Assembly (NCBI GenBank): GCA_964536725.1
Contig: CAZHYJ010000004.1
Location: forward strand, 48,940-98,018
Direction of reading: 5' to 3'
DNA from: an uncultured Gammaproteobacteria bacterium
GTDB taxonomy: Bacteria > Patescibacteriota > Patescibacteriia > Magasanikbacterales > GWA2-37-8
DNA: 49,079 bases
The position numbers and the translations under genes were made by a program. Below, piece by piece: positions 7,643 through 44,734 of this stretch; positions within the stretch are counted from its first letter, which is position 1, and the number at the start of each line of letters is the position of its first letter. The notes under the pieces were generated by a model. The model saw nothing but the letters and a program-made list of their open reading frames with translations, was not told where the DNA came from and did no database searches.

Positions 7643-9430
7643 ATGGCCGACACCCAACTTATCAAAGACAAGCTGGATTTGGCGCAGTTTATCGGTGAAT
7701 ACGTCCAGGTCAAAAAGGCTGGTTCCTACTGGAAAGCCTGTTGCCCATTTCACCACGAAAAAACGCCTTCTTTCATGATCCATCCGGAACGTCAGTTCTG
7801 GCACTGTTTTGGTTGCTCCAAGGGCGGGGATATTTTTACTTTTGCGCAAGAAATTGAAGGATTAGATTTTTCTGAAGCACTAAAATTGTTAGCCGATCGC
7901 GCGGGGGTAAAAATTGATAGCTATCGCAATGAGATTGACAAGAGTCAAAAAAATCGCATTTTAGAAATTAATCAAAAGGCGGCATATTTTTTTAATCACG
8001 TTCTTCTAGAGATGGCCCAAGCGAAAGACGCGCGTGATTATTTGGAGCGGCGCCAATTAAAAAAAGAGGTGATTGCTGATTGGGAAGTGGGATATATTCC
8101 TGATCAATGGGAGTTGCTTACCCAATATTTTTTAAAAAAAGGAATTGGCGTGGATGATTTGGTGGCTTCGGGATTGACGATTAAAAAAGATGGGGTGACA
8201 GGCGGTCGAGGATATTATGATCGTTTTCGTGGGCGGATAATGTTTCCAATTAAAAATGTCCATGGTAATATTGTTGGCTTTACCGGTCGACAGTTGGTGG
8301 AAAACCCGGATGCGGGCGGGAAGTATGTGAACTCTCCTCAGACTATTGTGTTTGATAAGTCGCGCGTGTTGTATGGATTAGACAAAGCCAAGATGGAAAT
8401 TAAGGCGAAAGATTTGGCAGTAATTGTGGAAGGTCAGATGGATGTCATTGCTTGTCATCAGGCGGGAATGAAAAATGTGGTAGCGGCATCAGGGACAGCT
8501 TTAACACCAGAACAAATTCGGTTGATTGAACGTTATACCAAAAATATCGCGATGGCTTTTGACGCGGACAAGGCGGGAATCAACGCGGCGAAACGGGGGA
8601 TTGATGTGGCGTTAAAAGAAGGTATGAATGTAAAGGTAATCCGCGTGCCGGAAGGTGCCGGTAAAGATGCGGATGAAGTAATTAAAAAAAATCCAGCGGT
8701 GTGGTTTAAGGCAGTAGAAGATGCCACGGATATTATGCAATGGTTTTTTGATATTGTGTTGGCGGGGAGAAGGTTGGTTTCACCTAAGGAACGCCAGGCG
8801 GTTAGTGACGAACTTTTGCCGTTGATCGGTTTGATTCCGTATGCGGTGGAAAAAGATATTTGGTTAAAAAAACTGGCGGAGACGATCGATACTGAGGTGG
8901 TGGTTTTGCGGGAAGATTTAAAAAGAATCGCTGCTCAGCAAGTAGTACGTGTGCATAATCCGCTAGTAGCGAAGCCAACAATAGCAGTCAAAAAGGTTGT
9001 CCCGTCACACCTTGATTCTTTGTTTGAAAGGTTGTTGATGTTGATTACCAAATTTCCTGATATTCTTCCCGATGTTGTGGCTAAATTACCAGATCTATTA
9101 CCGGCCGATTCCGAGCAGTCTAAGCTTTACGAAACCATTAAAAAACAGTATAATGATAACAACGACTTTACTCTCGCCACTTTTTTGTCAATTTTGGCTT
9201 TGCCGGAATTTTTTGAAGTGGTGGAGATTTTAAGACTCAAGGCGGAATTAGAATTTTCTGAATGGAATATTGAGCAGGGGCGTGTTGAATTGATTGAGAC
9301 GACGGAGCGGTTGAGAGAAGGGGGCAAGCGTTATCGCCGGCAAATTTTGCAGCAAGAAATTAGCGCAGCTGCTAAAGCAGGTGATCAGAAGCGAGAAGAA
9401 GAATTATTAACTCAATTTCAAAATTTGTAG
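7643..9430 (+). CDS. dnaG: DNA primase
   Basis: Zn finger CCPFHHEKTPSF..WHCFGC, DRFRGRIMFPI, KYVNSP, TOPRIM VEGQMDVI and FDADKAG. Confidence 0.95.
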   Translation: MADTQLIKDKLDLAQFIGEYVQVKKAGSYWKACCPFHHEKTPSFMIHPERQFWHCFGCSKGGDIFTFAQEIEGLDFSEALKLLADRAGVKIDSYRNEIDKSQKNRILEINQKAAYFFNHVLLEMAQAKDARDYLERRQLKKEVIADWEVGYIPDQWELLTQYFLKKGIGVDDLVASGLTIKKDGVTGGRGYYDRFRGRIMFPIKNVHGNIVGFTGRQLVENPDAGGKYVNSPQTIVFDKSRVLYGLDKAKMEIKAKDLAVIVEGQMDVIACHQAGMKNVVAASGTALTPEQIRLIERYTKNIAMAFDADKAGINAAKRGIDVALKEGMNVKVIRVPEGAGKDADEVIKKNPAVWFKAVEDATDIMQWFFDIVLAGRRLVSPKERQAVSDELLPLIGLIPYAVEKDIWLKKLAETIDTEVVVLREDLKRIAAQQVVRVHNPLVAKPTIAVKKVVPSHLDSLFERLLMLITKFPDILPDVVAKLPDLLPADSEQSKLYETIKKQYNDNNDFTLATFLSILALPEFFEVVEILRLKAELEFSEWNIEQGRVELIETTERLREGGKRYRRQILQQEISAAAKAGDQKREEELLTQFQNL

Positions 9431-9447
9431 TCTAACGTTAAAAATTT

Positions 9448-10824
9448 ATGTCTGGTAAAAGTAAGTTGCAAAAGAAAATTAAAAAAGCGGCAGTGAAGGT
9501 TGTAAAAAAAGTAAAGGCAAAAAAAATAATTAAGACTAAGCCGGTAAAGTCGATGAAGAAGATTGTTGTTTTTAAAAAAGCGGTCAAAGTTTTAAAAAAG
9601 AAAGAACTTGCTAAAAAAATAGAAAAAAAATCCGATAAAAAACACGGGCATAAGTTTTTTGTACATAAAAATAATAAGGCGCTGAAGCATAAAACGCATT
9701 TTGTCGCGCCAGCAGTGGTTGAGCCAGTTGTAGAGCCAACATTAACTGCAATTTGGGAAATGGTGCGTAAAGGTAGAAATCGTGGTTTTATCACCGAAAC
9801 AGAGTTGGGTGCTTTGATGGCACGTCCGGAATGTTATTTGGATCTTTATGAGGGATTGCTAGATGTTTTTGAAAAAAATGGAATCACCGTAGTCGAAGCG
9901 GCCACAAATTTGTTAGGCGCAAAGGTTTCTCAGAGCGAAACTTTGAAACAATTTCAAGGTTCACAACCAGATATGGATATTCCATTTGATCTTGGAGAGA
10001 TTTCCTCTGATTCCATCCAGATGTATTTGCGTGAGATCGGCAAGATTCCGCTTTTGAAAAATGACGAAGAAATCGCTTTGGCAAAACGTAAAGAAAAAGG
10101 TGATCATCGCGCAGAGCGAAAAATTATTGAAGCCAACTTGCGTTTAGTAGTTTCCATTGCGAAAAAATTTGTCGGTAAAAGTTTGTCTTTGTTGGATTTA
10201 ATTCAAGAAGGTAATATCGGTTTGTTTCGAGCGGTAAAGAAATTTGATCATCGTAAAGGTTTTAAATTTTCAACCTATGCTACTTGGTGGATTCGTCAAG
10301 CCATTACACGTGCGCTAGCTGATCAGTCGCGTACGATTCGTATTCCGGTGCACATGGTGGAGACGATCAATCGTTTTCAGCAGGTGCAGCGTCGTTTGAT
10401 GCAAGATTTGGGACGTGATCCAACACCAGAAGAGTTAGCGGCTGAAATGGGTGAAGAGGTAGAAAAAATTAATCATATTATTAAAATTTCTCAGGACACA
10501 GTTTCGCTCGAGGTGTCTGTGGGTGACGACGATGACGATACTCAGTTGGGAGATTTTATCGAAGATGTCAAAAATGTTTCGCCGGATCGTGCGGCTGGTT
10601 TGCAGATTTTGCGTGATTATGTACGCGATGCCATTCAATTTTTGTCTCCGCGTGAACAAAAGATCTTGGAGATGCGTTTTGGTTTAGCCGATGGCGTGAC
10701 GCATACTTTGGAGGAAGTGGGTACCGAGTTTGGTGTAACGCGTGAACGTATTCGTCAGATTGAAGCCAAAGCGTTAGAAAAAATTCAAACTTCTGATTTG
10801 ATCAGTAAGCTGCGCGATTATTAG
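9448..10824 (+). CDS. rpoD: Primary sigma factor sigma70 with Lys-rich N-terminal extension
   Basis: [53 protein letters not shown]; follows dnaG. Confidence 0.95.
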
Positions 10825-13170: not shown

Positions 13171-13321
13171 CTCTTCGGGGGCAGTCGCTTTTTTTTACAC
13201 CTTCTTGGATTGATTGGCTTGGTTTTTGGTTATTAAAATAAAGGCAGCTTCAGTATTTACGGTTTTTTATTATTTGTGGTATAATGTCATCGTTAGAGAA
13301 ATTAATTTTTTTCCGAAACAA

Positions 13322-16300
13322 ATGGTGAAAAGTAAAGGAAAATTAGGTAAAAGCTTTATAAAAGTTGCCATTTTTGGTTTCGTCCTCTTTTTGTTTTTTC
13401 CTTTTAACGAAATTTTTTCTGCTACTTCAATCACAAAATTTTCCGATACATTTGCTGGCACCACAATCGACACAGTCAAATGGACAGAAATTGATACTGC
13501 TGTTGGTGGTAGTGGTGGTACAGCCGGAAATGTTCAGCAAAATGAAGTGGCCATGATTAAGAGTACTGGTGCTTGGGCGGCAAATGGATTGAAGAGTGTT
13601 GATTATTTTGATCGCTCGGCTTCGGATGTTAGTATAGAGACAGATGTAATAATTCCAGACTGTTCTGCTTATGAAGGTGTAATTGGCTATGGTGATTTTG
13701 CCTTTGGTACTAATCCAAGTAATGCATATTTAGTTTATAGTCACGGGCCGTTGTATTTTGCTTATTATAATAACGGTGTTAGAGCAAATCTTGCAACCGC
13801 TTCTTTTACCTGTACCAACAACGTGTCTTTTCACGTTAGGTTGGTTGTTTTGCAAGAAGGTGGCGCTGAATTATATATTAATAGTTCTTCTACACCAGCT
13901 GCTACTTTGGCGGTAGGCACTTTTACCAATAAGCAGGTTTTTTTATCAAGCCATAGTTCAGTTGATTTTGTCTCCTATGACAACTATACAGTGAATGCTT
14001 TTGCGCCAGATGCACCGACAAATTTGGCTGCCTCTCCGTCAGATTCAGCTGTTTTTTTGAGTTGGACCGCGCCAGCAGATAATGGCGGTTCAGCTATAAC
14101 CGATTATTTGGTTGAATACAAAGTGTCCACCGATAGTATATGGGGTGTTTTTGCAGACAGTGTTACAACTACTGCCTCAGCTAATGTTAGTAGTTTGACC
14201 AACAGTATTAGTTATGACTTTAGAGTGTCTGCCATAAGTGTTGTTGGGACTAGTACAGCATCAAGCGTAGTTTCTTCTACGCCGATTGTGGCTGTTCCTG
14301 GACAGCCATTAAGTTTATATGGTCTGCCAGGAAATGGACAGGTTTCTTTAAGCTGGGCTGCTCCTTTGTTAGATGGAGGATCGGCAATCACTGATTACAT
14401 AGTTAAATATACCACCAGTAGTGTTTGGTCAACTTTTTCTGATGGAACTTCGAGCTCTACAACTGCAGTGGTTACTGGTTTAACAAACAATACTACTTAT
14501 GGTTTTTCAATTACCGCAGTAAATAGTGTGGGAAATAGTGTTACTTCGAGCGTGGTTTATGTTACGCCCAGAATTTTACAACTTTCTGATATATTTTCTG
14601 GTGCTGTTATTGATACAGCTAAATGGACAGAAGTTGATACTGCCGTAGGAGGTAGTGGTGGATCTGCTGGTAAAGTACAGCAAAATAATGGTTTGATTGT
14701 TTTAGGTACTGATGCTTTTGGCACTAATGGAGTAAAAAGTACGTCTACCTATAGTAGAGAGAGAAATGATTTGATAATAGAATCGGATTTAAATACACAA
14801 GACTGTACTGCTTATTCTGGTGGTGTTGGTTTTGGTGATTTGAATATCGGAGCAAATCCAGGTGACGCCTATATCGCTTACAGTCATGATGGAGCAGTGT
14901 TTGCTTATTATCACAATGGTGTGCGTTTGGGCGTGGCCACTTCTACATTTTCTTGCACCAATAATACTCCCTTTCATTTTAAGATAGTGGTTTTGCAAGC
15001 AGGTGGAGCAGAGCTTTATATAGATGGCACCTCAACGCCCAATATTGTTTTGTCTGGTGGCTCGTTTACTGAAGGACAAGTTTTTTTAGAGAGCCACAGC
15101 TCTTCTCAGTCAGTTACTTACAACAATTTTTCACTTAGTGCATCCGTGCCTGGTGCACCCACAAATTTAGTTGCTGGAGCGGGGGATAGCCAAGTCTCCT
15201 TGACATGGGATGCTCCGACAGATAACGGTGGTACAGCTATTACTGATTATACTATTGAGTATAAACAAAATTCGACTGCTTCTTGGTCTAGTTTTGTTGA
15301 TGGAGTGTCTGCGACTGCTTCTACTATTGTTACTGGTCTATCTAATGGGATTAATTATAATTTTAGAGTTTCGGCAATAAATGCGATTGGCATCAGTACT
15401 TCTACCAGTATTGTTACCGCTATGCCGATTACCGCAGTGGCTTCGGCGCCATCTGTTTCAGGAGTTAGTATTACTGGCACGTCAACTTTAACTGGTGTTT
15501 ATGCCTTTGTTGATACAAATGGTGATAGTGAAGGTAGTTCAGTAATGCGTTGGCTAAAGTCAGATACCGCGAGTGGAACATATTTAGAAATTAATGGGGC
15601 AAATAGTTTAACCTATACACCAACTGCTGGTGATATAAATAGTTATATTAAATTTGAAATTACTCCAGTTGCAACAGTGGCCCCAACTACCGGCACAACA
15701 GTAACAAGTTCTGCTACTAGCAGAATTAATGTATCAAATGATTATATTAGTTTAATACTTTCTACTGGGCAAAGTCTTTCTCTTGGATCGTTGGGAACCC
15801 CCGCACTTTCAACATCCCAATCTTATGGCAACTTAATGTTGGACGGTAGTTCGCTTGTACCATTAATAGAAAGCAGTGTGGAGTCGATTAGTAGTGCTAT
15901 GGCAAATGGTATATCGGCTGATACTATTGGTGATTATTATCGTACTGTAGTAGCCAAACATGGGACGGCTGGTGCAGCTTATGTAAGTTTAAAAAAGGGG
16001 ACAGCAGCCTACCAAAACGGCATGACTCAAGCTGCCACCACTAAAACAGCTGTGGAAGCTTTAGGAAAAACTTTGCGCGTTATCGGTGTAACTGTTATTC
16101 ACGGTGAGTCTGATTTTCTTGCTGGTAATTCTGACAGCTACGAAAGCTATCTGGAAGAATGGCAAAGTGATTACGAAACCGATGTAAAAGCGATTACTGG
16201 CCAAAGTGGTACGATTCCTTTGTTTACTGACCAAATGAGTTCTCATACTGGCTACAGCACCGCTACTTCAAGCTTGCCGATTGCTCAATTAGCAGCTTCG

Positions 16301-18475
16301 GAAAGCAATCCAGGTAAAATAATTTTAGTTACACCTAAGTATTTTTTTGATTATGCTGATCATGCACATTTGGTAAATACCAGTTACCGACTTTTGGGTG
16401 AATATTATGGTAAAGTAATGCAAAAAGTTGTTGTTGAGGGAGAAACTTGGAAGCCATTAAGCCCAGAAGATGTTGTTAGAAATGGAAATATTATTTATGC
16501 CACTTTTAATGTTCCGGAGGCGCCTATTACATTTGATACTTCAACTATTTTAGAAGCAACTAATTATGGTTTTGAATATTTTGATAATTCTTCCTCTGCA
16601 TCCATAAGCAGTGTTGAAATTTATGATACGGATACTGTTAAAATTACTTTAAATACTACTCCTACCGGTAGTGGACAGAAATTACGTTATGCTTATACGG
16701 GCACCGCTGGAGCTACTCCAGGTGGACAAGTGGCTGGATCTATTAAGGGTAATCTGCGTGATAGTGATCCAACCATATCTCTTTCGGGAAATTATCTATA
16801 TAACTGGTCGGTTCAGTTTGATGAGGCAATAACCGAAGATTCAGCTGGGCCAACTCTTGCAGAAGTTAATGCTATTACTACTCCAACTTCTAGTACTGTG
16901 CCGAGTTATACTTTTTCGTCAACTGAAGCTGGTACGATTGCTTATGGCGGTGGTTGTTCAAGTAGTGTTACTTCTGCTGTTGCTGGTTCAAACACAATTA
17001 GTTTTTTAACTCTAGCCAACGGCACTTATAACAGTTGTACTATTACTGTTACAGATAACTATGGTAATACCAGTTCGCCGTTGGCAGTTAGTTCTTTTGT
17101 TGTTGATAACGTTGCTCCAAGTGTCCCTGCCTTTTCTACCATTACTCCAGCTATTTCGTCGGTTGTTTTTGTTTGGGATAGTGTCTCTGGAGCTTCTTCG
17201 TACGCTGTTTCTTCTACAGCTGTTTCGGTTTCTTCTACTAGCAATACTAATATGACTTTATCTGGTTTTACTCCGAATAGCTTGTATTATTTCCAAATTA
17301 AATCTATCGACGCCGCTGGTAATTCTAGTAATTATTCAACTGTTACTTCCACATATACTTTGGCTTCCGTGCCTTCTTCTGTTTCTGGTGTTGCCAATTC
17401 TCAAACAGCAATTACTATTTCTTATTCTGGTGACGCTACTGATTATTATGTGGAAAATACCACCAAAGGAACAAATTCCGGTTGGACAACCGCTACTTCT
17501 TACCAGTCAACAGGTTTGGTTTGTGGCACTTCATATATTTTTAGAGTGAAGGGGAGAAATAGTGTTGGTGTAGAAACTTCTTATGCCGATTCGATAACGG
17601 TTAATACTACTGCTTGCGGTGGCGGAGGTATAGTTATTTTTAATCCACCAGTTATTAATTCTGCAACTACAGTCAGTATTACCCCAACAATTACTGGAGG
17701 TACTGTAGCCTTTAATTTTAATGTTTCCAATGTTGCATACGTTGCTATTTCTGATAATGTGAATTTTGTTAACTCCTCTTGGGAGACATATTATGCAACA
17801 AATAAAATTTACAAATTATCTTCCTTGTTGAAGGCGGGCGAAACAAAAAAACTTTACATCAAATTTCGTGCCGCTGATGGTTCGGAAACAAAAGTGCAAA
17901 CAGTTACTTTGTCTGGCGCTGAAGGAATTGCGGGCACTACAAATGATATCAGTGCCGCAGTTTATTTATTTAATCGCAATCTTGCTCCGGGAGTTACTAA
18001 TAATGATGTAAAATTGCTTCAAAAATATTTAAATACTCATGGTTTTGTTGTTGCTTCTAGAGGAGCAGGTTCTCCTGGCAGAGAGACTGCTTTCTTTGGT
18101 GCTGCCACCAAAACTGCTTTAATTAAATTCCAAAAAGCAAAAGGTTTAAAACAAACTGGAATTTTAGATTTAACAACGCGCAATAAAATTAACAGTGTCT
18201 TAACCGCTCCTGCTTCAACAGTTAGTCAACCGCAAACACCACTAAGTAGTTATGTTTTTAAATCATTTTTAACGGTTGGCTCGAACGGTGAAGAGGTGAG
18301 GCAGTTGCAACTACGTTTACAAGAATTAGGTTATATGGATAAGAGTATTAAAGTTGTGCCTCATTTTGGTGTTGCTACCAAAGCGGCTGTTATTAAATTA
18401 CAAAAAGACAACAAACTTATTCCGGTTGCTGGTTATGTTGGTCCAGGAACGAGGAAAATATTAAACAAACGGTAA
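13322..18475 (+). CDS. Large surface protein: duplicated beta-sandwich/lectin-like module, Fn3 repeats, SGNH (SASA-like) esterase, C-terminal peptidoglycan-binding domains
   Basis: Signal peptide; repeated KWTE(I/V)DTAVGGSGG module; WxAPxDxGGxAITDY Fn3 repeats; GQS, HGESD and DHAH motifs; two VKLLQKYL/VRQLQLRL PG-binding-like repeats. Start set to ATG 13322, downstream of TGGTATAAT. Confidence 0.75.
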   Translation: MVKSKGKLGKSFIKVAIFGFVLFLFFPFNEIFSATSITKFSDTFAGTTIDTVKWTEIDTAVGGSGGTAGNVQQNEVAMIKSTGAWAANGLKSVDYFDRSASDVSIETDVIIPDCSAYEGVIGYGDFAFGTNPSNAYLVYSHGPLYFAYYNNGVRANLATASFTCTNNVSFHVRLVVLQEGGAELYINSSSTPAATLAVGTFTNKQVFLSSHSSVDFVSYDNYTVNAFAPDAPTNLAASPSDSAVFLSWTAPADNGGSAITDYLVEYKVSTDSIWGVFADSVTTTASANVSSLTNSISYDFRVSAISVVGTSTASSVVSSTPIVAVPGQPLSLYGLPGNGQVSLSWAAPLLDGGSAITDYIVKYTTSSVWSTFSDGTSSSTTAVVTGLTNNTTYGFSITAVNSVGNSVTSSVVYVTPRILQLSDIFSGAVIDTAKWTEVDTAVGGSGGSAGKVQQNNGLIVLGTDAFGTNGVKSTSTYSRERNDLIIESDLNTQDCTAYSGGVGFGDLNIGANPGDAYIAYSHDGAVFAYYHNGVRLGVATSTFSCTNNTPFHFKIVVLQAGGAELYIDGTSTPNIVLSGGSFTEGQVFLESHSSSQSVTYNNFSLSASVPGAPTNLVAGAGDSQVSLTWDAPTDNGGTAITDYTIEYKQNSTASWSSFVDGVSATASTIVTGLSNGINYNFRVSAINAIGISTSTSIVTAMPITAVASAPSVSGVSITGTSTLTGVYAFVDTNGDSEGSSVMRWLKSDTASGTYLEINGANSLTYTPTAGDINSYIKFEITPVATVAPTTGTTVTSSATSRINVSNDYISLILSTGQSLSLGSLGTPALSTSQSYGNLMLDGSSLVPLIESSVESISSAMANGISADTIGDYYRTVVAKHGTAGAAYVSLKKGTAAYQNGMTQAATTKTAVEALGKTLRVIGVTVIHGESDFLAGNSDSYESYLEEWQSDYETDVKAITGQSGTIPLFTDQMSSHTGYSTATSSLPIAQLAASESNPGKIILVTPKYFFDYADHAHLVNTSYRLLGEYYGKVMQKVVVEGETWKPLSPEDVVRNGNIIYATFNVPEAPITFDTSTILEATNYGFEYFDNSSSASISSVEIYDTDTVKITLNTTPTGSGQKLRYAYTGTAGATPGGQVAGSIKGNLRDSDPTISLSGNYLYNWSVQFDEAITEDSAGPTLAEVNAITTPTSSTVPSYTFSSTEAGTIAYGGGCSSSVTSAVAGSNTISFLTLANGTYNSCTITVTDNYGNTSSPLAVSSFVVDNVAPSVPAFSTITPAISSVVFVWDSVSGASSYAVSSTAVSVSSTSNTNMTLSGFTPNSLYYFQIKSIDAAGNSSNYSTVTSTYTLASVPSSVSGVANSQTAITISYSGDATDYYVENTTKGTNSGWTTATSYQSTGLVCGTSYIFRVKGRNSVGVETSYADSITVNTTACGGGGIVIFNPPVINSATTVSITPTITGGTVAFNFNVSNVAYVAISDNVNFVNSSWETYYATNKIYKLSSLLKAGETKKLYIKFRAADGSETKVQTVTLSGAEGIAGTTNDISAAVYLFNRNLAPGVTNNDVKLLQKYLNTHGFVVASRGAGSPGRETAFFGAATKTALIKFQKAKGLKQTGILDLTTRNKINSVLTAPASTVSQPQTPLSSYVFKSFLTVGSNGEEVRQLQLRLQELGYMDKSIKVVPHFGVATKAAVIKLQKDNKLIPVAGYVGPGTRKILNKR

Positions 18476-19426: not shown

Positions 19427-19513
19427 ATTTTATTGATTAAATTAACAGGTTAAAATGTTGTCTAACCATTGTTATCGTATCAACTTTAATTAGGTTTGGC
19501 AAGAATGAATGCT

Positions 19514-19585
19514 AAAACAAAAACCAGTTCTCTCTTCTGGTATTAAAACTTAATATCAAAAGGGAACGGAACTGGTTGTTTGTTT
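19514..19585 (-). terminator. Long compound hairpin C downstream of the GC-rich ORFan
   Basis: AAAACAAAAACCAGTTC pairs with GAACTGGTTGTTTGTTTT; inner TATTAA/TTAATA stem. Confidence 0.55.
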
Positions 19586-19618
19586 TTTGCGCTGAATCGC
19601 GCTGGTGGGGAGTTGGTG

Positions 19619-19879
19619 TTAACCACCGAGCTGAAAATCGATCGCGGCGTTGAACACAGTCGCGAAGGCATCGTGGGCCTCATCCCATCCGTTGGCGCCC
19701 TCCTCGACGAATGGCACTTGGGTCTTCTGCTCGGCCCACGGGAGCCAGTTGGTGCGACCACCGAAAGGCAGCCCTGTCCGCACCTTGATGGTGCCGTCAC
19801 GCTGCCAAATGGCCTCGCACCGGACATTGGCCGCTCCACATTCAATGTGGTGGCCATCCTCGTTGGTTCTGATCCCCAT
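19619..19879 (-). CDS. GC-rich ORFan, 86 aa
   Basis: GGAGGAATAGAT-ATG strong SD; sharp GC rise (one 60-nt line counted at 65%) between AT-rich flanks. Confidence 0.55.
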   Translation of the reverse strand: MGIRTNEDGHHIECGAANVRCEAIWQRDGTIKVRTGLPFGGRTNWLPWAEQKTQVPFVEEGANGWDEAHDAFATVFNAAIDFQLGG

Positions 19880-20023
19880 ATCTATTCCTCCAAAGTTGCC
19901 CAAAGGCAAGTTAAATATAGACTAACAAACCATAGAGGGAGAGTCAATATTTGATTTGTTTAATATTATTGATTTATATTAAAAAATAAGGTAATATTTT
20001 GATAGAAATTAATTAACACTTTT

Positions 20024-21519: not shown

Positions 21520-21608
21520 TACCCCCTACACTACGCTTCGGGTCATAAACCTCTCATCCCTTCCGAACAACAACAAAAACACCACCTAACGGTGGAATTT
21601 TTGTTTTG

Positions 21609-21681
21609 TGATCCGGCTGAGATTCGAACTCAGGACCGTCTCCTTAAAAGGGAGCTGCTCTACCAGCTGAGCTACCGGACC
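21609..21681 (-). tRNA. tRNA-Lys (UUU)
   Basis: Acceptor GGTCCGG/CCGGATC, D arm GCTC/GAGC, loop CTTTTAA, T arm CTGAG-TTCGAAT-CTCAG. Confidence 0.92.
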
Positions 21682-25940: not shown

Positions 25941-26011
25941 GCGGGATTAGTACATTGGTAGTATGCATCCTTCCCAAGGATGAGAGGCCAGTTCGATTCT
26001 GGTATCCCGCT
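25941..26011 (+). tRNA. tRNA-Gly (CCC)
   Basis: Acceptor GCGGGAT/ATCCCGC, anticodon arm CATCC-TTCCCAA-GGATG, T arm GCCAG-TTCGATT-CTGGT. Confidence 0.92.
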
Positions 26012-26070
26012 CGATACATCACTCGGAAAAGGTCGAGCGATGTAAAATGGTTGAGTCGATGGAGGTGTCT

Positions 26071-26826
26071 ATGCGGATCAAAGAAAGATCTGTGCGGGCG
26101 ATTGTGCTTGCGGACGGCCCCGAATTGGGACCCGGTTCCATTCTGGAGGCTGGTTACAAGGACAGGCTTCCGAAGTGTATGCTTCAGGTCGGGGGGCAGA
26201 CGCTCATTGTGCGCATCCTGAAGATGTTGAACGCCTTCGGGATTATCAATGTCACCGTCGTGACGGGGCATAAGAGCGCGTTGGTGGAGAAGGAGGGTGG
26301 TTTTCGTGCGCGTTACGTCAAGAACCCCTTCTACCACGTGCTGGGGAGTGTGGCCTCTCTGTGGTTCGCACGGCATTGTCTGCGGGACAGCGACGTCCTG
26401 GTGCTGAACGCCGGGATGTTCTTCGAAGAAGCGGTGCTGACCAAGCTCCTGGACGATTCGGAGAGCAACTTCGTGCTGTTGTCTGATTCTAGTCGGCAGG
26501 TGGACACCAGCAACCAGTTCCTCTTGAAGGAAGGTGAACTCTGCGGCTACAGCGAGTGCGGCAAGGCCGTCATGCCCACGGACGCATATCTCGGTGTGGC
26601 CAAGATCAGCGCGTCTTTCATTGACGAGTTTCGTTCTTGCCTCCGACTCCTGGTTGAAGAGGAGAAGTGGGCAGATCAGCGCTGGGAAGACACCTTCGTT
26701 CGTGAGTGTCAGCGGTTCAGAGTAGAAGTCAGGGATGTCTCTGGCATGTTCTGGAGCGGTCTCAACTGCTCCAAGGACTACGACGATGTCGTCGCCTGGG
26801 TCGACGCTCAGCGCGACAAAACCTAG
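26071..26826 (+). CDS. GC-rich nucleotidyltransferase (LicC/phosphocholine cytidylyltransferase-like) with degenerate motifs
   Basis: AIVLADG, LPKCML, VVTGHK, NPFY, SLWFAR; SD GGAGGTGTCT-ATG; ~58% GC in a counted line. Confidence 0.7.
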   Translation: MRIKERSVRAIVLADGPELGPGSILEAGYKDRLPKCMLQVGGQTLIVRILKMLNAFGIINVTVVTGHKSALVEKEGGFRARYVKNPFYHVLGSVASLWFARHCLRDSDVLVLNAGMFFEEAVLTKLLDDSESNFVLLSDSSRQVDTSNQFLLKEGELCGYSECGKAVMPTDAYLGVAKISASFIDEFRSCLRLLVEEEKWADQRWEDTFVRECQRFRVEVRDVSGMFWSGLNCSKDYDDVVAWVDAQRDKT

Positions 26827-26897
26827 TCGTCCGTGTAAAAGCGAACGACATTATGGAGGTGAAATATTGTTTCGCGTGGTGGGGGGATGCGCGGACC

Positions 26898-26992
26898 AAA
26901 AGTCCATTCGCACACCACCTTTTTTTCTCAAAATGTTTTTGGATGAAAAGGTGGAGGTAAAATTTTGGAGGATAAATTTGCGAATGGATTTT
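26898..26992 (+). repeat. Conserved compound hairpin A
   Basis: Outer stem AAAAGTCCATTCGCA/TGCGAATGGATTTT, inner CCACCTTTT/AAAAGGTGG; homologous to 29298-29378. Confidence 0.7.
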
Positions 26993-26996
26993 CTTT

Positions 26997-27067
26997 GCCC
27001 TCTTTGTTCAGTGGCAGAACAGTGGTATCGTAAACCACAAACATCAGTTCGATTCTGATAGAGGGCT
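26997..27067 (+). tRNA. tRNA-Thr (CGU)
   Basis: Acceptor GCCCTCT/AGAGGGC, D arm GTTC/GAAC, anticodon arm GTGGT-ATCGTAA-ACCAC (unusual A32), T arm ATCAG-TTCGATT-CTGAT. Confidence 0.88.
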
Positions 27068-27142
27068 CATTTATACACACCTTGTCATTGAAGAAGTTTT
27101 ATACTTCTTCTTTTTGTGGTATAATTTAGTTATCAATTGCTT

Positions 27143-27823
27143 ATGATTAAATTGCAAGGAGTAACTAAACTTTATACCGCCACTTCCGTTGCACTGCGGG
27201 ATATTAGTATTAATATTGGTGCGGGGGAGTTTGTGTCAATTATTGGTCAAAGTGGTAGTGGTAAAACAACACTAGCCAAACTTTTGATTGCTGAAGAGCG
27301 TCCCACCAAAGGCCATATTCAAATTGGTGATTGGGATTTGACCAACATTACCTCCAACGAAGTTCCATATTTACGTCGTCAGATTGGAATGATTTTTCAG
27401 GATTACAAACTTCTACCCAAGAAAACTATTTATGAAAATGTAGCTTTTGCTTTGGAAGTTGCAGGTGAAAACAGCAATCGCATTCATCAGGTTATTCCGC
27501 AATTGTTGGAAATTGTTGGTTTATCTAAAAAACACGATCATTATCCTTTTCAACTATCTGGTGGTGAGCAACAACGAGCGGCTATTGCACGTTCGCTCGC
27601 TCATCGTCCAAAAATAATTGTGGCAGATGAGCCGACTGGCAATTTGGATACAATTAATACCGAAGAAATAATCCAGATATTAAAAAAGATAAATGAATTT
27701 GGTACGACTATTATGTTGTTAACGCACAATCGTGAAGTGGTAAACAGTTTGCGTCGTCGGGTGATTACTTTGCATGGTGGAGAGATTGTGATGGATCAAA
27801 GTGAAGGAAAATATGTGCTTTAA
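27143..27823 (+). CDS. ftsE: Cell division ATP-binding protein FtsE
   Basis: [37 protein letters not shown]; upstream of ftsX. Confidence 0.9.
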   Translation: MIKLQGVTKLYTATSVALRDISINIGAGEFVSIIGQSGSGKTTLAKLLIAEERPTKGHIQIGDWDLTNITSNEVPYLRRQIGMIFQDYKLLPKKTIYENVAFALEVAGENSNRIHQVIPQLLEIVGLSKKHDHYPFQLSGGEQQRAAIARSLAHRPKIIVADEPTGNLDTINTEEIIQILKKINEFGTTIMLLTHNREVVNSLRRRVITLHGGEIVMDQSEGKYVL

Positions 27824-27851
27824 ATTGTAAATGAAATTATAAGCGAAACGT

Positions 27852-28760
27852 ATGGTATCATTTTGGCGAGTGTTAAAATTTGCTTTTCAAGATTTAGGTC
27901 GCAATATTGGGATGTCTTTCATGACTGTCTTTATTTTGGTTCTAATGTTGCTGTCTTTTAACACCTTGTGGTCAGTGGAGATTTTGACCAAGCAAGCGGT
28001 GAGTACAGTGAAAGATCAGATCAACGTTAGTATATATTTTTCTTCTGACGCGAAAGATAAGGAAGCTGAAGATGTTAAAAGTTATCTAGCGGGTTTTCCT
28101 GAAGTAACACAGGTGGATTTACGCAGTCGTGATGAGGTACTGCGTTTGTTCCAAGAGCGTCATAGTTTGAGCCCAGAAGTTTTGGATGCGTTGAAAGAAT
28201 TAGGTGGCAATCCTTTTGGCCCGACGGTAATCGTCAAAACCAAAGAACCAGGTGATTACAAAAAGATTGTGGAGGCTCTGAATGCTCCGGAATACAAAGA
28301 TTTGATTGAAGCGAAAAGTTTTGATGAGCATTCTGATGCGATCGACAAAATCCAAAATATCACTAACCGAATTGAGGGGGCGGGGATGGGGTTGACGATT
28401 TTGTTTGCGCTGATTTCCTTTTTGGTGATATTTAATACGGTGCGGGTGGCAATAACTAGCCAGCGTTTTGAGATTGGAATTAAACGTTTGGTGGGGGCGA
28501 GCAACTGGTTTATCCGTGGGCCATATTTGGTTGTGTCAGTGATTTTAACTTTGATTAGCGTGGGTGTGGCGGCGGTCATTATTAAAATTGCCTTAAAATG
28601 GGTGGATCGTTATTTGTCTGTGGTTTTCGCCAACGGCTTCTCCTTGACAAATTATTACAATTCGCATATTCTGTACGTGTTTGGCGTACAGATCTTAGTG
28701 GTGCTGGTTTTAACAGTACTATCCAGTGTCTTAGCGATGCGCCGACAATTGAAGGTGTAG
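27852..28760 (+). CDS. ftsX: Cell division permease FtsX
   Basis: Four-TM topology, IFNTVRVAI, EIGIKRLVGASNWFIRGP. Confidence 0.9.
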   Translation: MVSFWRVLKFAFQDLGRNIGMSFMTVFILVLMLLSFNTLWSVEILTKQAVSTVKDQINVSIYFSSDAKDKEAEDVKSYLAGFPEVTQVDLRSRDEVLRLFQERHSLSPEVLDALKELGGNPFGPTVIVKTKEPGDYKKIVEALNAPEYKDLIEAKSFDEHSDAIDKIQNITNRIEGAGMGLTILFALISFLVIFNTVRVAITSQRFEIGIKRLVGASNWFIRGPYLVVSVILTLISVGVAAVIIKIALKWVDRYLSVVFANGFSLTNYYNSHILYVFGVQILVVLVLTVLSSVLAMRRQLKV

Positions 28761-28801
28761 TTTGATAACAATGTTTGTGTGTGGATAGTATGAGTATATA
28801 T

Positions 28802-28872
28802 TCCGGGGTCGTCTAAAGGCAGGACTGCAGACTTTGAATCTGTATATCTTGGTTCGATTCCAAGCCCCGGAA
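28802..28872 (+). tRNA. tRNA-Gln (UUG)
   Basis: Acceptor TCCGGGG/CCCCGGA, anticodon arm GCAGA-CTTTGAA-TCTGT, T arm CTTGG-TTCGATT-CCAAG. Confidence 0.92.
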
Positions 28873-28981
28873 CAACTTTAATATAGTAATTAAACAGGGT
28901 TTATATTGACAAAACCCTGTTTTTGTAGTAGTATCAAAATCGTAGTTTTGTTTACTACTCTTTTTTGTTAGGGGGGCAAGG

Positions 28982-29221
28982 ATGCTCGGAAAAACGTGCC
29001 GGTTCCGGTTCAATCGAGCGTTGCATACGAGCAACGCAGTCAGCTTTTACAATGACTGTGTTGTGTATGTTTTCTTGGAGCGATCAGACGGCCGGTTCAA
29101 GGCCGTCATCAGGGAGATCCCGGCAGACAAGGAAGGTCTGGGCATGGTCGGTACGTGCCTAGTCGCTTCGGCTGCCGAATTGTTCCCCATGGACAGCCAC
29201 TCTTCGGTGGTTGTCGCCTAG
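28982..29221 (+). CDS. GC-rich ORFan, 79 aa
   Basis: Purine-rich GGGGGGCAAGG before ATG; upstream TTGACA-17-TAGTAT; GC rise relative to flanks. Confidence 0.45.
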   Translation: MLGKTCRFRFNRALHTSNAVSFYNDCVVYVFLERSDGRFKAVIREIPADKEGLGMVGTCLVASAAELFPMDSHSSVVVA

Positions 29222-29297
29222 TCAACTCGACACCTCAAACAGGAGTCAGACAATGCCAATGCCTCGCGAGAGGCCTGGTGTGGGTAAGCAGTTCTAC

Positions 29298-29378
29298 AAG
29301 AACCGCTCGCAACCACCATGTTTTTTTCTAAAATTTTTGGAGAAAGACATGGAGGGGGTATATTTGCGAGCGGTTCTT
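29298..29378 (+). repeat. Conserved compound hairpin B
   Basis: Perfect 15-bp outer stem AAGAACCGCTCGCAA/TTGCGAGCGGTTCTT, inner CCATGT/ACATGG, followed by a T tract. Confidence 0.7.
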
Positions 29379-29434
29379 TTTTACTCATTTAGCAAGGTTG
29401 CTTAAAACCTTGTTTTTTGTTAAAATATCCTTGC

Positions 29435-29460: not shown

Positions 29461-29512
29461 ATTCGTTCGGAAAAGGAAAATTTGTTTTCCTTTTCTCTCA
29501 CTCATCTCAAAT

Positions 29513-36860: not shown

Positions 36861-37511
36861 ATGGGTAATTTTAGTCGTGAAGGCGGTAGATCAGGTGGCG
36901 GTGGTGGACGCGGCGGTTTTGGTGGTGGAAGATCGTTTGGCGGTGGTGGTAGATCGTTTGGTGGTGGTAGATCATTCGGTGGTGGTAGAGACAGAGATGG
37001 TGGCGACAGACCAATGCACAAAGCTACTTGTAGTGAATGTGGCAACAGCTGTGAGCTTCCTTTCAAACCAACCGGCGATCGACCAGTATTCTGCAGCACT
37101 TGTTTTGGAAAACAACAAGACGGCGGCGGTGCTAGTAGACCAACCAGATCATTTGGTGGTGAGAGACGTGAAAGACCTCGTTTTGATGACAACCAAATGC
37201 ATGATGCTATCTGTGGTAAATGTGGCAAAGAATGCCAGGTACCTTTCAAACCAATGGCTGGTAAGGATGTATTCTGTAGTGATTGTTTTGAAAAAGGTGG
37301 CAAGGGTGGTAAAGATACTGGTGAGCTTATGGATCAGTTGAAAGCATTACATGTGAAGATCGATAAGTTGATGGCAATTTTAAACCCAAAGGCGACAGTA
37401 GAAAAAACTGAGAAGCCTGAGGCAAAAAAAGAAATCGCAACCAAAGAGGTTGTGAAAGAAAAAGCCAAAAAAGCTGCTCCTAAAAAAGTTGCAGCTAAGA
37501 AGAAGAAATAA
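36861..37511 (+). CDS. RGG-rich protein with two CxxC-x17-CxxC zinc ribbons and a Lys-rich tail
   Basis: CSECGNSCELPFKPTGDRPVFCSTC and CGKCGKECQVPFKPMAGKDVFCSDC. Confidence 0.8.
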   Translation: MGNFSREGGRSGGGGGRGGFGGGRSFGGGGRSFGGGRSFGGGRDRDGGDRPMHKATCSECGNSCELPFKPTGDRPVFCSTCFGKQQDGGGASRPTRSFGGERRERPRFDDNQMHDAICGKCGKECQVPFKPMAGKDVFCSDCFEKGGKGGKDTGELMDQLKALHVKIDKLMAILNPKATVEKTEKPEAKKEIATKEVVKEKAKKAAPKKVAAKKKK

Positions 37512-44301: not shown

Positions 44302-44685
44302 TTATTTGCTTAAAACGCATTTATTACATACCCCAGTTAGTGTTAACTGGTGATAGATGCTAGTAAAATTTTTAAAATGTCCAAAGGAGTGTTTGCATTC
44401 TATTTTCTCCATATAACCACATTTTTTACAAATGATATGGTGGTGTGGTTTGTCGGCTGAGCAATATATTTTTTCTTTATCAACAACTTCTGCATTAACT
44501 AAATGTAAATCTTCAAATAAATTTAACGTCCTATACACAGAGGCTCTGTCAAAATGTTTTAATTTTTTATGCAAATCACGGGCAGAAATAGGGGTGTGGT
44601 TGGTGGTTAAAAATTCTAAAACAGCCAAACGGGGTTTGGTTGCTTTATATCCAACTTCTACTAATTTTTGCTTGAGTTTCTCCAT
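44302..44685 (-). CDS. Fur family transcriptional repressor (probably Zur)
   Basis: TKPRLAVL, RASVYRTL, HHHIICKKCG, C-terminal CNKC; start set to ATG 44685. Confidence 0.88.
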   Translation of the reverse strand: MEKLKQKLVEVGYKATKPRLAVLEFLTTNHTPISARDLHKKLKHFDRASVYRTLNLFEDLHLVNAEVVDKEKIYCSADKPHHHIICKKCGYMEKIECKHSFGHFKNFTSIYHQLTLTGVCNKCVLSK

Positions 44686-44695
44686 AACAAAAACA

Positions 44696-44734
44696 TTATA
44701 ACACACTTGCGAATGGTTCGCAAGTGTGTTATAA
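44696..44734. promoter_or_regulatory. Perfect 18-bp palindrome containing the fur promoter and candidate operator
   Basis: TTATAACACACTTGCGAA-tgg-TTCGCAAGTGTGTTATAA; minus strand reads TTGCGA-17 nt-TATAAT. Confidence 0.65.

Follow-up and report, generated by a model that had tools for sequence, protein, structure and literature searches.

Long compound hairpins behind foreign single genes inserted at tRNA genes in a Magasanikbacteria-like lineage

Candidate Phyla Radiation (CPR) bacteria have tiny genomes with few recognised mobile elements, and how they acquire genes is poorly understood. In the window studied here (the whole 49,079-nt stretch of DNA that was analysed), two GC-rich genes that lie just behind tRNA genes each end in a long hairpin, and the two hairpins resemble each other. 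Do these structures close mobile DNA cassettes, or do they act at the ends of transcripts? A sequence-only reading of the locus had proposed an attC-analogous recombination site for gene capture, a MITE-like element, or a structured RNA or terminator family.

Foreign genes inserted directly 3' of tRNA genes

Insert A (979 nt, 26018..26996, + strand) was delimited by blastn of the window against the related loci L037 and L038 and by a survey of tRNA spacing. It starts 0-5 nt past the 3' end of tRNA-Gly(CCC) (25941..26012, +; ARAGORN and Rfam), homology to L037 stopping at 26017, and reaches up to tRNA-Thr(CGU) (26997..27068, +; ARAGORN and Rfam). It stands in place of a 103-nt unaligned stretch of the L037 Gly-Thr spacer, a spacer that measures 1-20 nt in many more distant relatives according to the same survey. 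A small 5' stem-loop, CATCACTCG..CGAGCGATG (26015..26044, +; RNA fold and sequence), marks its left end. The cargo, gene A (26071..26826, +; alternative starts at 26059 and 26047), matches NTP_transf_3 in Pfam and NCBIfam, a cytidylyl/nucleotidyl-transferase-like family, and has a GC content of 0.57, a GC3 of 0.74 and a GGAGG Shine-Dalgarno (SD) site. It has no evident promoter and is therefore probably read from the tRNA-Gly transcript. Among 5.8 billion proteins only three homologs were found, at no more than 43% identity, the two nearest on contigs with a GC content of 0.55-0.61 in Aminotran_5 / CDP-OH_P_transf operons.

Insert B (514 nt, 28879..29392, +), separated from insert A by tRNA-Thr, FtsE, FtsX and tRNA-Gln, was defined by comparison with L037 and L038 and starts 5 nt after tRNA-Gln(UUG) (28802..28873, +; ARAGORN and Rfam). 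L037 is devoid of it, and L038 has, at exactly this nucleotide, 181 nt of unrelated sequence; TTTA is found at both junctions of insert B and AGTTA at those of the L038 segment. The left part of the insert forms a terminator-like hairpin for tRNA-Gln (28892..28934, +; terminator scan and RNA fold) that overlaps a sigma-70-like promoter (TTGACA-17-TAGTAT), and the right flank is the ancestral tRNA-Gln terminator (29391..29420, +), also present in L037 and L038. Gene B (28982..29221, +; GC 0.55, GC3 0.70) encodes a 79-aa ORFan that has no homolog among 5.8 billion proteins, no match in Pfam, PADLOC, PHROG or NCBIfam searches, and an AlphaFold pLDDT of 49. It always lies behind FtsX, in samples from several sequencing projects. 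Its SD is a G-rich site weaker than that of gene A, a nuance to the earlier description of GC-rich, SD-bearing inserts starting just after tRNA-Gly and tRNA-Gln.

The GC3 of genes A, B and a third GC-rich gene, C (see below), is 0.70-0.74 versus 0.24-0.46 in native genes, and an SD-like motif is missing from 43 of the 44 native genes checked. The empty-site comparison suggested by the sequence-only reading showed both sites to be empty in L037 (FtsX 92%) and the inserts to be polymorphic among relatives. Inserts A and B are true foreign insertions directly 3' of tRNA genes. The Gly-Thr site is empty in L037 and holds the NTP-transferase gene in the window, an ABC-F paralog in L038 and a Sa_NUDIX defence effector in L133; in other relatives it holds HNH-like, likely acetyltransferase, Nudix, HIT-like and sugar-nucleotidyltransferase-like genes, types read from translations save where a search supports them. 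The tRNA-Gln site is empty in L037 and contains a 33-aa ORF in L038 and gene B in the window. Other cargo at tRNA-adjacent sites occurs in L038, in L133 and in about ten more distant loci, and no A/B hairpin was found behind any of the relatives' alternative cargo. The same hot spots thus take many single genes without the hairpin, which argues that insertion there does not need it. Duplicates of tRNA 3' ends in the spacers of L059, L075, L081 and L092 point to integrase-type traffic at these tRNAs. The window's own inserts are free of such a repeat, as previously remarked, and short direct repeats (AGTTA, TTTA, TCACAA) flank three inserts.

Two related hairpins and a third, conserved one

Hairpins A (26898-26996, +) and B (29298-29385, +) were delimited by sequence, RNA fold and alignment. 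Both lie where they had been described and have in common the core TCGCA-(C)-ACCACC..TTTTTTTCT(C)AAAAT(G)TTTTTGGA..TGGAGG..ATTTGCGA, in which GGAGG pairs with CCACC in each copy. In hairpin A, an outer stem (26899-26912 / 26979-26992) encloses an inner U-rich/purine-rich stem (26915-26954), which is followed by 12 additional nucleotides that include another GGAGG and then by UUUUCUUU; its 3' end lies 0-4 nt upstream of tRNA-Thr. Hairpin B has a perfect outer stem of 15 bp (29298-29312 / 29364-29378) and an inner stem of 17 pairs, followed by UUUUUU. The global alignment of the two scores z = 9.35 (none of 2000 shuffles reach the score), and plain blastn within the window recovers a 52-nt core at E = 0.002. 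Neither the part of the 3'UTR that separates the stop codon from the hairpin (z = 1.25) nor the 5' regions of units A and B show any similarity, so the homology is that of a discrete module of ~90 nt. Judged by sequence, hairpins A and B are homologous, diverged copies, in inserts whose cargo and remaining sequence are not homologous. Between them the centre is conserved and the outer terminal stem varies, 5 of its 14 pairs being different.

These hairpins are 88-99 nt long versus 14-31 nt for native terminators and contain 29-37 pairs versus 5-13; their paired region is ~3x longer, as first estimated. Within the window, compound hairpins in which a 14-17-nt GC-containing outer stem encloses an inner hairpin occur intergenically only at A, B and C.

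Unit C lies on the minus strand. Its 5' part (19880..19950, -; alignment), with a promoter-like TTGACT-17-TAGTCT, a small UTR hairpin and a GGAGG SD, is ~70% identical to the copy found in a distant relative, L125. Gene C (19619..19879, -; GC 0.61, GC3 0.72) encodes 86 aa with a confident structural model (pLDDT 85) for which fold comparison gave no significant match, and relative to the L125 copy it shows a dS of 0.71 and a dN/dS of 0.24, the mark of purifying selection. The hairpin C block (19504..19600, -; alignment with L125 and RNA fold) comprises a small GC stem-loop, an A-run, a long compound hairpin and a U-run. Over ~88 nt it is identical in L125 save for one A in the A-run, and, taking 0.46 synonymous differences per site, a substitution-free stretch of this length has a probability of ~1e-23. 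Homology between the two units breaks directly after the U-run, beyond which L125 carries ~85 nt of inserted DNA. The L125 homolog sits directly 3' of the ortholog of the window's tRNA-Lys(UUU) (21608..21681, -; ARAGORN), flanked by a 6-bp TCACAA repeat, and unit C thus occupies different positions in two syntenic genomes. This change of position with a conserved block fits the idea of a cargo-independent module. The distance from stop codon to hairpin C is equal in both long-diverged gene copies, which indicates that the hairpin was inherited together with the gene. Hairpin C has no sequence in common with A and only a marginal similarity to B.

A 26-nt terminator beside tRNA-Lys is also identical in L125, next to a protein that is only 67% identical. 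Going by this terminator, non-coding hairpins are unusually conserved in the host lineage generally.

The predicted folds contain internal loops and bulges. Hairpin A folds at -35.2 kcal/mol on the sense strand (z -4.9) and -29.7 on the antisense strand, and hairpin B at -46.0 kcal/mol (z -9.9) and -36.5, gains of 5.5 and 9.5 kcal/mol, respectively. Hairpin C folds slightly better as antisense (-33.3) than as sense (-29.7), so this strand bias is not general. In the A/B alignment each copy forms 29 of 29 pairs, with six two-sided changes and four one-sided changes via G-U transitions; when partners are slid by 1-3 columns as a control, pairing falls to 48-64%. The compensatory changes noted before are borne out to the extent that pairing is kept, but the inner difference (CCT/AGG versus CATGT/ACATG) is mainly a 3-bp stem extension in B. 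The view that this covariation means selection is weakened: the covariation comes from two sequences, is statistically weak (7 of 500 shuffles reach it) and could look the same under quasi-palindrome correction. A U-run follows the stem on the sense strand at each gene's 3' end (A ..GGAUUUUCUUU; B ..GGUUCUUUUUU; C ..CUGGUUUUUGUUUU), and in the window a long sense-strand compound hairpin followed by a U-run is found after all three GC-rich genes and after no other genes.

Further copies and partner enzymes were searched for. The covariance-model scan proposed earlier covered the window and 594 kb of related loci and yielded no further A/B copy; the loop core alone gave only chance matches in GTDB representative genomes, and the core patterns tried against viral contigs gave none. 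The two A/B copies in ~53 kb both follow foreign genes, none being found after the ~44 native genes; the known long hairpins amount to two copies of the A/B type (A, B) and two of C (window and L125). In Rfam only tRNAs scored above the gathering threshold, and the hairpins gave noise-level matches to microRNA precursors. Pfam searches of the window and Logan annotations revealed no integrase, transposase or HUH domain, which agrees with the absence of a visible integrase reported before, and none lies in the 4 kb beyond (~53 kb in total); no tnpA or tnpB was found either. No attC R'' (RYYYAAC) or R' (GTTRRRY) core was returned by a regex search of the three hairpins and 15-20 nt of flank on either strand, and the window contains neither a cassette array nor an adjacent intI or attI.

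RNA end or DNA end

We give an even chance to the explanation that hairpins A and B are an RNA-level 3'-end module that serves mobile single-gene units just 3' of tRNAs as a leaky terminator or a protective hairpin. That the hairpin acts as RNA we infer from its G-U pairs, the U-run that trails it, its place 3' of the gene and, for A and B, the better folding of the sense strand; the same features favour the structured RNA or terminator option among those initially listed. The long compound stem-loop with its U-run would probably serve at the transcript's 3' end as a leaky intrinsic terminator and a protective cap; it may also be a processing site of the RNase III type. A terminator at hairpin A is probably leaky, as it stands 4 nt before tRNA-Thr, for which no promoter was found between the hairpin and the tRNA 5' end. 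The native PpiC hairpin likewise abuts tRNA-Gly in the window, L037 and L038, and both arrangements fit read-through followed by tRNA processing that would leave the hairpin as the mRNA 3' end. The module would be part of small, horizontally mobile, single-gene expression units, each with a GC-rich coding sequence and its own SD site and some with a host-type promoter. Within this Magasanikbacteria-like lineage, such units would occupy insertion hot spots just downstream of tRNA genes. Integration itself would be independent of the hairpin: the sites may be loaded clade-wide by tRNA-targeting integrative elements, whose scars would be those seen in relatives, and/or by illegitimate integration at short (4-6 bp) repeats, with later exchange through flanking homology. 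Several observations sit uneasily with this RNA-level module. The hairpin C block is substitution-free despite the dS of its gene, whereas a plain terminator needs structure only; stems with over 30 pairs exceed the usual terminator range by far; the right ends of all three inserts or units fall within 0-14 nt of the hairpin U-run, as expected of an element end; and the presence of one module on two unrelated cargo genes, 2.4 kb from each other, requires a common source.

The DNA-level alternative draws on several of these points. In it the hairpin, an analogue but not a homologue of attC, would be the site at which a non-autonomous single-gene cassette recombines; it would fold as ssDNA and be recognised by a recombinase supplied in trans from elsewhere in the genome or by a co-resident element, tRNA 3' ends being the targets. 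A module common to unrelated cargo, the retention of hairpin C far beyond its cargo with homology breaking exactly at the hairpin end, the different placement of unit C, right junctions 0-14 nt past hairpins A, B and C, polymorphic inserts with clean empty sites, and a foreign cargo composition as in integron cassettes all speak for it. The attC-analogous idea is nonetheless weakened by the missing cores, the lack of an array, the lack of a recombinase within ~53 kb and the hairpin-free cargo entering the same sites. A variable terminal stem around a conserved centre is moreover the reverse of attC sites and transposon ends, the G-U pairs point to RNA, inserted DNA continues past the hairpin in L125, and only 2 + 2 copies are known. 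We consider this alternative unlikely, while granting it appreciable weight. Its wider form, in which a CPR lineage would possess a non-integron cassette system with families of ~90-nt hairpins as cargo-independent ends, a trans recombinase and sites 3' of tRNAs, would explain hairpins that stay unchanged while their cargo diverges; we hold it to be unlikely. It is quite improbable that the hairpins are independent palindromic repeats of the MITE, ERIC or Correia kind that inserted themselves downstream of genes and are co-transcribed. A discrete ~90-nt module with inverted-repeat ends would suit such elements, ERIC and Correia being imperfect palindromes in transcribed intergenic DNA as well, but the terminal repeats differ from one copy to the other, no clear target duplication surrounds the module, the copies within ~53 kb here are confined to two foreign genes with none in the relatives' 594 kb, and the fixed offset of hairpin C bespeaks inheritance with its gene. 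A 3'UTR-derived small RNA or cis-regulatory element, for instance one sequestering the GGAGG of the 3' arm, would place the sequence too under selection, in keeping with the conserved centre of A and B, the substitution-free block of C and the GGAGG-CCACC pairing. Set against these are the lack of an Rfam family or of any nameable target, and a hairpin C that does not carry the sequence of A and barely resembles B; we regard this role, too, as quite improbable. Hardly probable at all is a functionless by-product, namely quasi-palindromes left by fold-back or template-switch repair at illegitimate-integration junctions, with the compensatory changes arising through quasi-palindrome correction. 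Long palindromes are hot spots of breakage and template switching, the hairpins do lie at insertion junctions, and the inner arm of hairpin B weakly resembles the ancestral terminator next to it, with 17 of 20 bases matching. That resemblance is within chance, 8 of 100 shuffles attaining as much, and neither the specific core common to A and B despite their different junctions nor the conservation of hairpin C across genomes is expected of a by-product.

Significance and known systems

The locus shows positions directly behind tRNA genes to be landing sites at which close relatives differ in single genes, including a defence effector. If the hairpin is an RNA end-cap only, it illustrates how regulatory parts can accompany genes in transfer; were the module a handle for moving units, it would represent a new cassette system. 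Either way, the two hairpin families provide search models for tracing gene flow in CPR bacteria.

In integrons, attC sites are imperfect inverted repeats of ~57-141 nt at the cassette 3' end that keep their structure while their sequence varies, and in chromosomal integrons the attC repeat is more uniform than the cargo. They also bear extrahelical bases, and it is their bottom strand that folds as ssDNA; solitary attC sites and CALIN clusters belong to the same kind of system. The units described here are similarly single genes of foreign composition closed 3' by an imperfect inverted repeat, of 88-99 nt. They differ in having no RYYYAAC/GTTRRRY cores, attI, intI or array, in the core genes and tRNAs that separate A from B, in a conserved part that is central, in the promoters that two of the three units possess, and in their targets, tRNA 3' ends. 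PATE, an element derived from IS200/IS605, carries a subterminal hairpin at either end, has a TnpA/TnpB partner and makes no target duplication. Set beside it, inserts A and B give a mixed picture: a small hairpin lies close to their left end and the long one close to their right, the two ends are unrelated, tnpA and tnpB were not found, and the junctions bear 4-6-bp repeats. As in intrinsic terminators, the transcription units here end in a sense-strand stem-loop with a GC-containing base and a U-run. T7 RNase III sites leave a protective 3' hairpin, and the layout of lower stem, internal loop and upper stem seen here resembles theirs. Intrinsic terminators usually have stems of ~5-14 bp and loops of 3-8 nt, against 29-37 pairs here, and in contrast to both classes these hairpins are homologous between unrelated genes, type C being conserved beyond structural requirement.

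Correia (CREE), ERIC and REP sequences are imperfect palindromes of ~100-150 nt. They act on the processing, stability or termination of RNA and show conservation across species, at different loci. They too are imperfect palindromes in transcribed intergenic DNA, but are multi-copy with conserved termini, as opposed to 2 + 2 known copies with variable termini behind foreign genes only. A passage of PMC2649163 describes Correia elements as binding RNase III and affecting neighbouring genes. For Neisseria, a passage of PMC1538595 relates the minimal mobile elements of Saunders and Snyder (2002), variable genes between conserved genes without a mobility gene; once DNA has been taken up, flanking homology is the presumed route of their exchange. 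Among the proteins of the window is a T2SSE/PilB-type ATPase, and type IV pilus and DNA-uptake ATPases belong to that family. As in minimal mobile elements, one site with conserved flanks houses different genes in each relative and no mobility gene inside; peculiar to the present inserts are the strict location at tRNA 3' ends, the 4-6-bp flanking repeats and the shared hairpin on GC-rich inserts. Finally, novel integrative elements of Prochlorococcus form tRNA-targeted islands in a streamlined genome (bioRxiv 10.1101/2020.12.28.424599). The inserts of the window depart from these in being single genes of 0.5-1 kb with no integrase and no tRNA-fragment repeat; they resemble them in placing variable cargo directly 3' of tRNA genes, in a group whose other members carry partial tRNA duplications.

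Foreign genes closed by long 3' hairpins

Three genes of the window are foreign: gene A (26071-26826, encoding an NTP_transf_3 protein), gene B (28982-29221) and gene C (19619-19879, minus strand). Their GC3 is 0.70-0.74, as opposed to 0.24-0.46 in the 44 native genes checked, in a window with an overall GC content of 0.395. A survey of the ribosome-binding sites of all 47 genes (44 native and the three GC-rich ones) found no SD-like motif in the 20 nt ahead of the start in 43 of the 44 native genes (e.g., upstream of 27143, 27852 and 29513), while GGAGG precedes A and C and a weaker G-rich site precedes B. The description of inserts A and B (the DNA holding these genes) as GC-rich and SD-bearing in an earlier, sequence-only reading was thus accurate, with the weaker site in B. 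A search of 5.8 billion proteins yielded just three homologs of gene A, each at no more than 43% identity, and the two nearest are found on contigs with a GC content of 0.55-0.61, in aminotransferase / CDP-alcohol phosphatidyltransferase operons. The protein search returned no homolog for gene B, whose structure model is poor. Gene C has one homolog at 76% and weak repeat matches; its structure model is confident, yet matched no fold.

The window belongs to a bacterium of the Candidate Phyla Radiation that resembles Candidatus Magasanikbacteria; its FtsX has its best named homologs among Magasanikbacteria and Patescibacteria proteins. Assemblies made independently in several sequencing projects show the same junctions, which rules out assembly chimeras as the source of the GC-rich segments. 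Four independent Logan contigs stop exactly at 29464, before a 12-bp palindromic hairpin (29464-29495; GGAAAAGGAAAA..TTTTCCTTTTC), and others are broken within the hairpin that closes gene B; inverted repeats probably interrupted the assembly at these points, which would have no biological meaning. A further GC-rich patch (36861-37030) was rejected as a foreign insert: it encodes the N-terminal Gly/Arg-rich repeat (GGGRSFGGG) of a native protein in which CxxC motifs recur (36861-37511), a compositional effect.

The hairpins that close genes A and B (26898-26996 and 29298-29385) are both followed by a U-run and share the core previously described for them. Their global alignment is far beyond chance (z = 9.35, 2000 shuffles). 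No relation is seen between the sequences that separate stop codon from hairpin (z = 1.25), or between the 5' regions; the shared part is therefore a module of its own, about 90 nt long. Terminator-like hairpins of native genes in the window are 14-31 nt long. Because GC content confounds a ranking of 100-nt windows by minimum free energy, we dropped it in favor of an inverted-repeat scan. A perfect inverted repeat of 18 bp around a 3-nt loop lies at 44696-44734 (TTATAACACACTTGCGAA / TTCGCAAGTGTGTTATAA). It extends over the start annotated for a Fur-family gene (44302-44706, minus strand) and may serve as an operator or as a terminator.

As sense-strand RNA, hairpin A folds at -35.2 kcal/mol (z -4.9) and hairpin B at -46.0 kcal/mol (z -9.9), the antisense folds being weaker by 5.5 and 9.5 kcal/mol respectively. 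All 29 consensus pairs of the alignment form in both copies, with two-sided changes in six and changes via G-U in four; sliding the 3' partners by 1-3 columns lowers pairing to 48-64%. Pairing is therefore kept, as noted before, but the selection that had been read from it is less certain: two sequences carry little statistical weight, and quasi-palindrome correction could mimic the pattern. Inspection ruled out a conserved peptide across the hairpins, since the reading frames of A and B differ, and a conserved promoter, since TTGGAG-16-TATATT in B has no equivalently spaced counterpart in A. An origin of hairpin B from the adjacent ancestral terminator was rejected, a 17/20 match not being beyond chance.

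Variable cargo beside tRNA genes

Insert A lies between tRNA-Gly and tRNA-Thr and insert B 3' of tRNA-Gln, and both are polymorphic among relatives. In one relative (L037, FtsX 92% identical), both sites are empty. Its tRNA-Gly and tRNA-Thr are about 100 nt apart, compared with 984 nt in the window, and a few bases after its tRNA-Gln stands the terminator that the window has to the right of hairpin B, which delimits insert B to 28879-29392. Neither insert has a duplicated tRNA fragment at its right end, in agreement with the sequence-only reading.

Other relatives carry other cargo. In L038 (88%), an ABC-F paralog occupies the Gly-Thr site, and an unrelated 181-nt insert (6155-6335) lies 3' of tRNA-Gln at the same nucleotide position as insert B; it combines a terminator and a promoter with a Trp/Lys-rich ORF of 33 aa (MWKEYKEYLSNNPKGYWFKAKLYGWGWTPVKWQ) and is flanked by 5-bp AGTTA direct repeats. 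In L133 (83%), the Gly-Thr spacer is filled by an AT-rich gene (1264-2022) for a 252-aa Sa_NUDIX protein. Its matches to PADLOC effector and DRT-associated NUDIX models point to a defense-type gene in the same hot spot as insert A. Across about 30 relatives, this spacer measures 1-20 nt in many distant loci and elsewhere 100-1700 nt with different single genes. The alternative inserts have no A/B-type or C-type hairpin, so the loading of these sites is independent of the hairpin.

A duplicated tRNA 3' end is the classic scar of integrase-mediated integration, and such duplications occur in the Gly-Thr spacers of several relatives. L059, L075 and L081/L082 have one or two extra tRNA-Gly 3' ends (..ATTCCGCTCA), and a 97-nt unit is tandemly duplicated in the spacer of L081. 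These repeats are leftovers of integration and excision events that recurred at tRNA-Gly. In another relative, L092, a GC-rich remnant of 120 nt comes after tRNA-Gln (7854-8100), together with a second copy of the tRNA's 3' two-thirds, which marks an integrase scar. Further along the same locus, at 9060-10230, a 196-aa gene with a GGAGG site (GC 0.61, GC3 0.79) lies in a GC-rich segment flanked by GCGTTCGGA(G/A)CC repeats.

Strain variants from other samples (L122-L124) show 0 differences in insert B. They differ at 21-27 positions in all, of which 20-25, nearly all synonymous, fall in a 490-nt tract of ftsX (28229-28719), with one or two in the flanks. The tract looks like a recombination mosaic imported from a diverged relative. 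We rejected dating insert B from this identity, as such a mosaic says nothing about age.

A second hairpin family and its distribution

Gene C is closed by a long compound hairpin of its own (19504-19586, minus strand), preceded by an A-run and followed by a U-run, with a sequence unrelated to A and marginally similar to B. A copy of the whole unit was found in L125, a syntenic but distant relative from a separate sequencing run. The two loci have a tRNA-Lys in common and are anchored by the C-terminus of a 1753-aa giant surface protein (13214-18475; fibronectin type III repeats, C-terminal peptidoglycan-binding domains), 67% identical to a partial gene in L125. There, the gene C homolog lies directly 3' of tRNA-Lys with a 6-bp TCACAA repeat on both flanks; in the window, the tRNA-Lys spot has no insert and the unit lies about 1.7 kb away, between other genes.

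Gene C is GC-rich in both and differs from its homolog at 57 of 261 bases (dS 0.71, dN/dS 0.24), and promoter and 5'UTR are about 70% identical, while the two 3' blocks, about 88 nt long, differ only by one A in a run; homology ends right after the U-run. Nothing else speaks as strongly as this conservation for such hairpins being more than exchangeable terminators; a caveat is that a native terminator of 26 nt likewise shows no difference between the two loci. The inner stem (19540-19560, minus strand) holds the 10-mer TTGATATTAA, identical to the core of the nick region in the replication origin of phiX174. We did not adopt this phiX174/pC194-like motif, an a posteriori lead that has no counterpart in A or B and no Rep gene, and is likely due to chance.

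The covariance-model scan that had been proposed (R1, built from A and B), run unfiltered on the window, recovered A and B and nothing more, all other matches being ordinary terminators at 20 bits or less, and gave no match in 594 kb of related loci. The loop-core pattern TTTTTTTCT(N)AAAAT(N)TTTTTGGA has 29 matches in 185,579 GTDB representative genomes, rejected as chance because all are without the ACCACC/TGGAGG flanks. Among IMG/VR viral contigs, the hairpin C core has 0 matches, the A/B core 6, attributable to chance, and gene C no relative. Comparison of hairpins, UTRs and 5' regions with all loci by blastn returned only themselves and the L125 copy of C. Rfam gave nothing for the hairpins at gathering or E-value thresholds, the plasmid collection no match to unit A and the phage collection none to unit C.

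Candidate roles: RNA ends or ends of mobile DNA

What the sequence-only reading noticed is real, and more structured than it could see, with sites that are empty in one relative and hold other cargo in others, and with a hairpin family besides that of A and B; the cassette system it suspected is supported in part only. We consider it about an even call that the hairpins act as an RNA end-cap or leaky terminator of mobile single-gene units. A role at the RNA 3' end is suggested by a sense-strand 3' hairpin after every foreign gene of the window and after no native one, by the U-runs that follow, by the G-U transitions in A and B and their bias toward the sense strand, and by hot spots that are loaded without any hairpin. 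In addition, hairpin A adjoins a promoterless tRNA-Thr just as a native PpiC hairpin adjoins tRNA-Gly, which suggests read-through followed by tRNA processing, with the hairpin left as the mRNA 3' end.

That the hairpin is instead a cassette end mobilized in trans at the DNA level seems rather unlikely to us. In its favor, unrelated cargo carries the same module, the right junctions lie 0-14 nt from the U-run in all three units, and hairpin C has stayed unchanged although its gene has diverged and occupies another locus. The proposed analogy with attC, the integron cassette recombination site, finds no core motifs (R''/R') on either strand and no array. Domain searches of the window detected no integrase, transposase or HUH domain, as the absence of a visible integrase had indicated, and none is listed in the 4 kb past its right end. 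Moreover, the hairpins are conserved at the center and variable at the termini, and the L125 insert has DNA beyond its hairpin. MITE-like, small-RNA or by-product readings share the remaining weight. The hairpins fit no described family; in kind, as hairpins that lie 3' of transferred genes in hot spots next to tRNAs, they come closest to known things.
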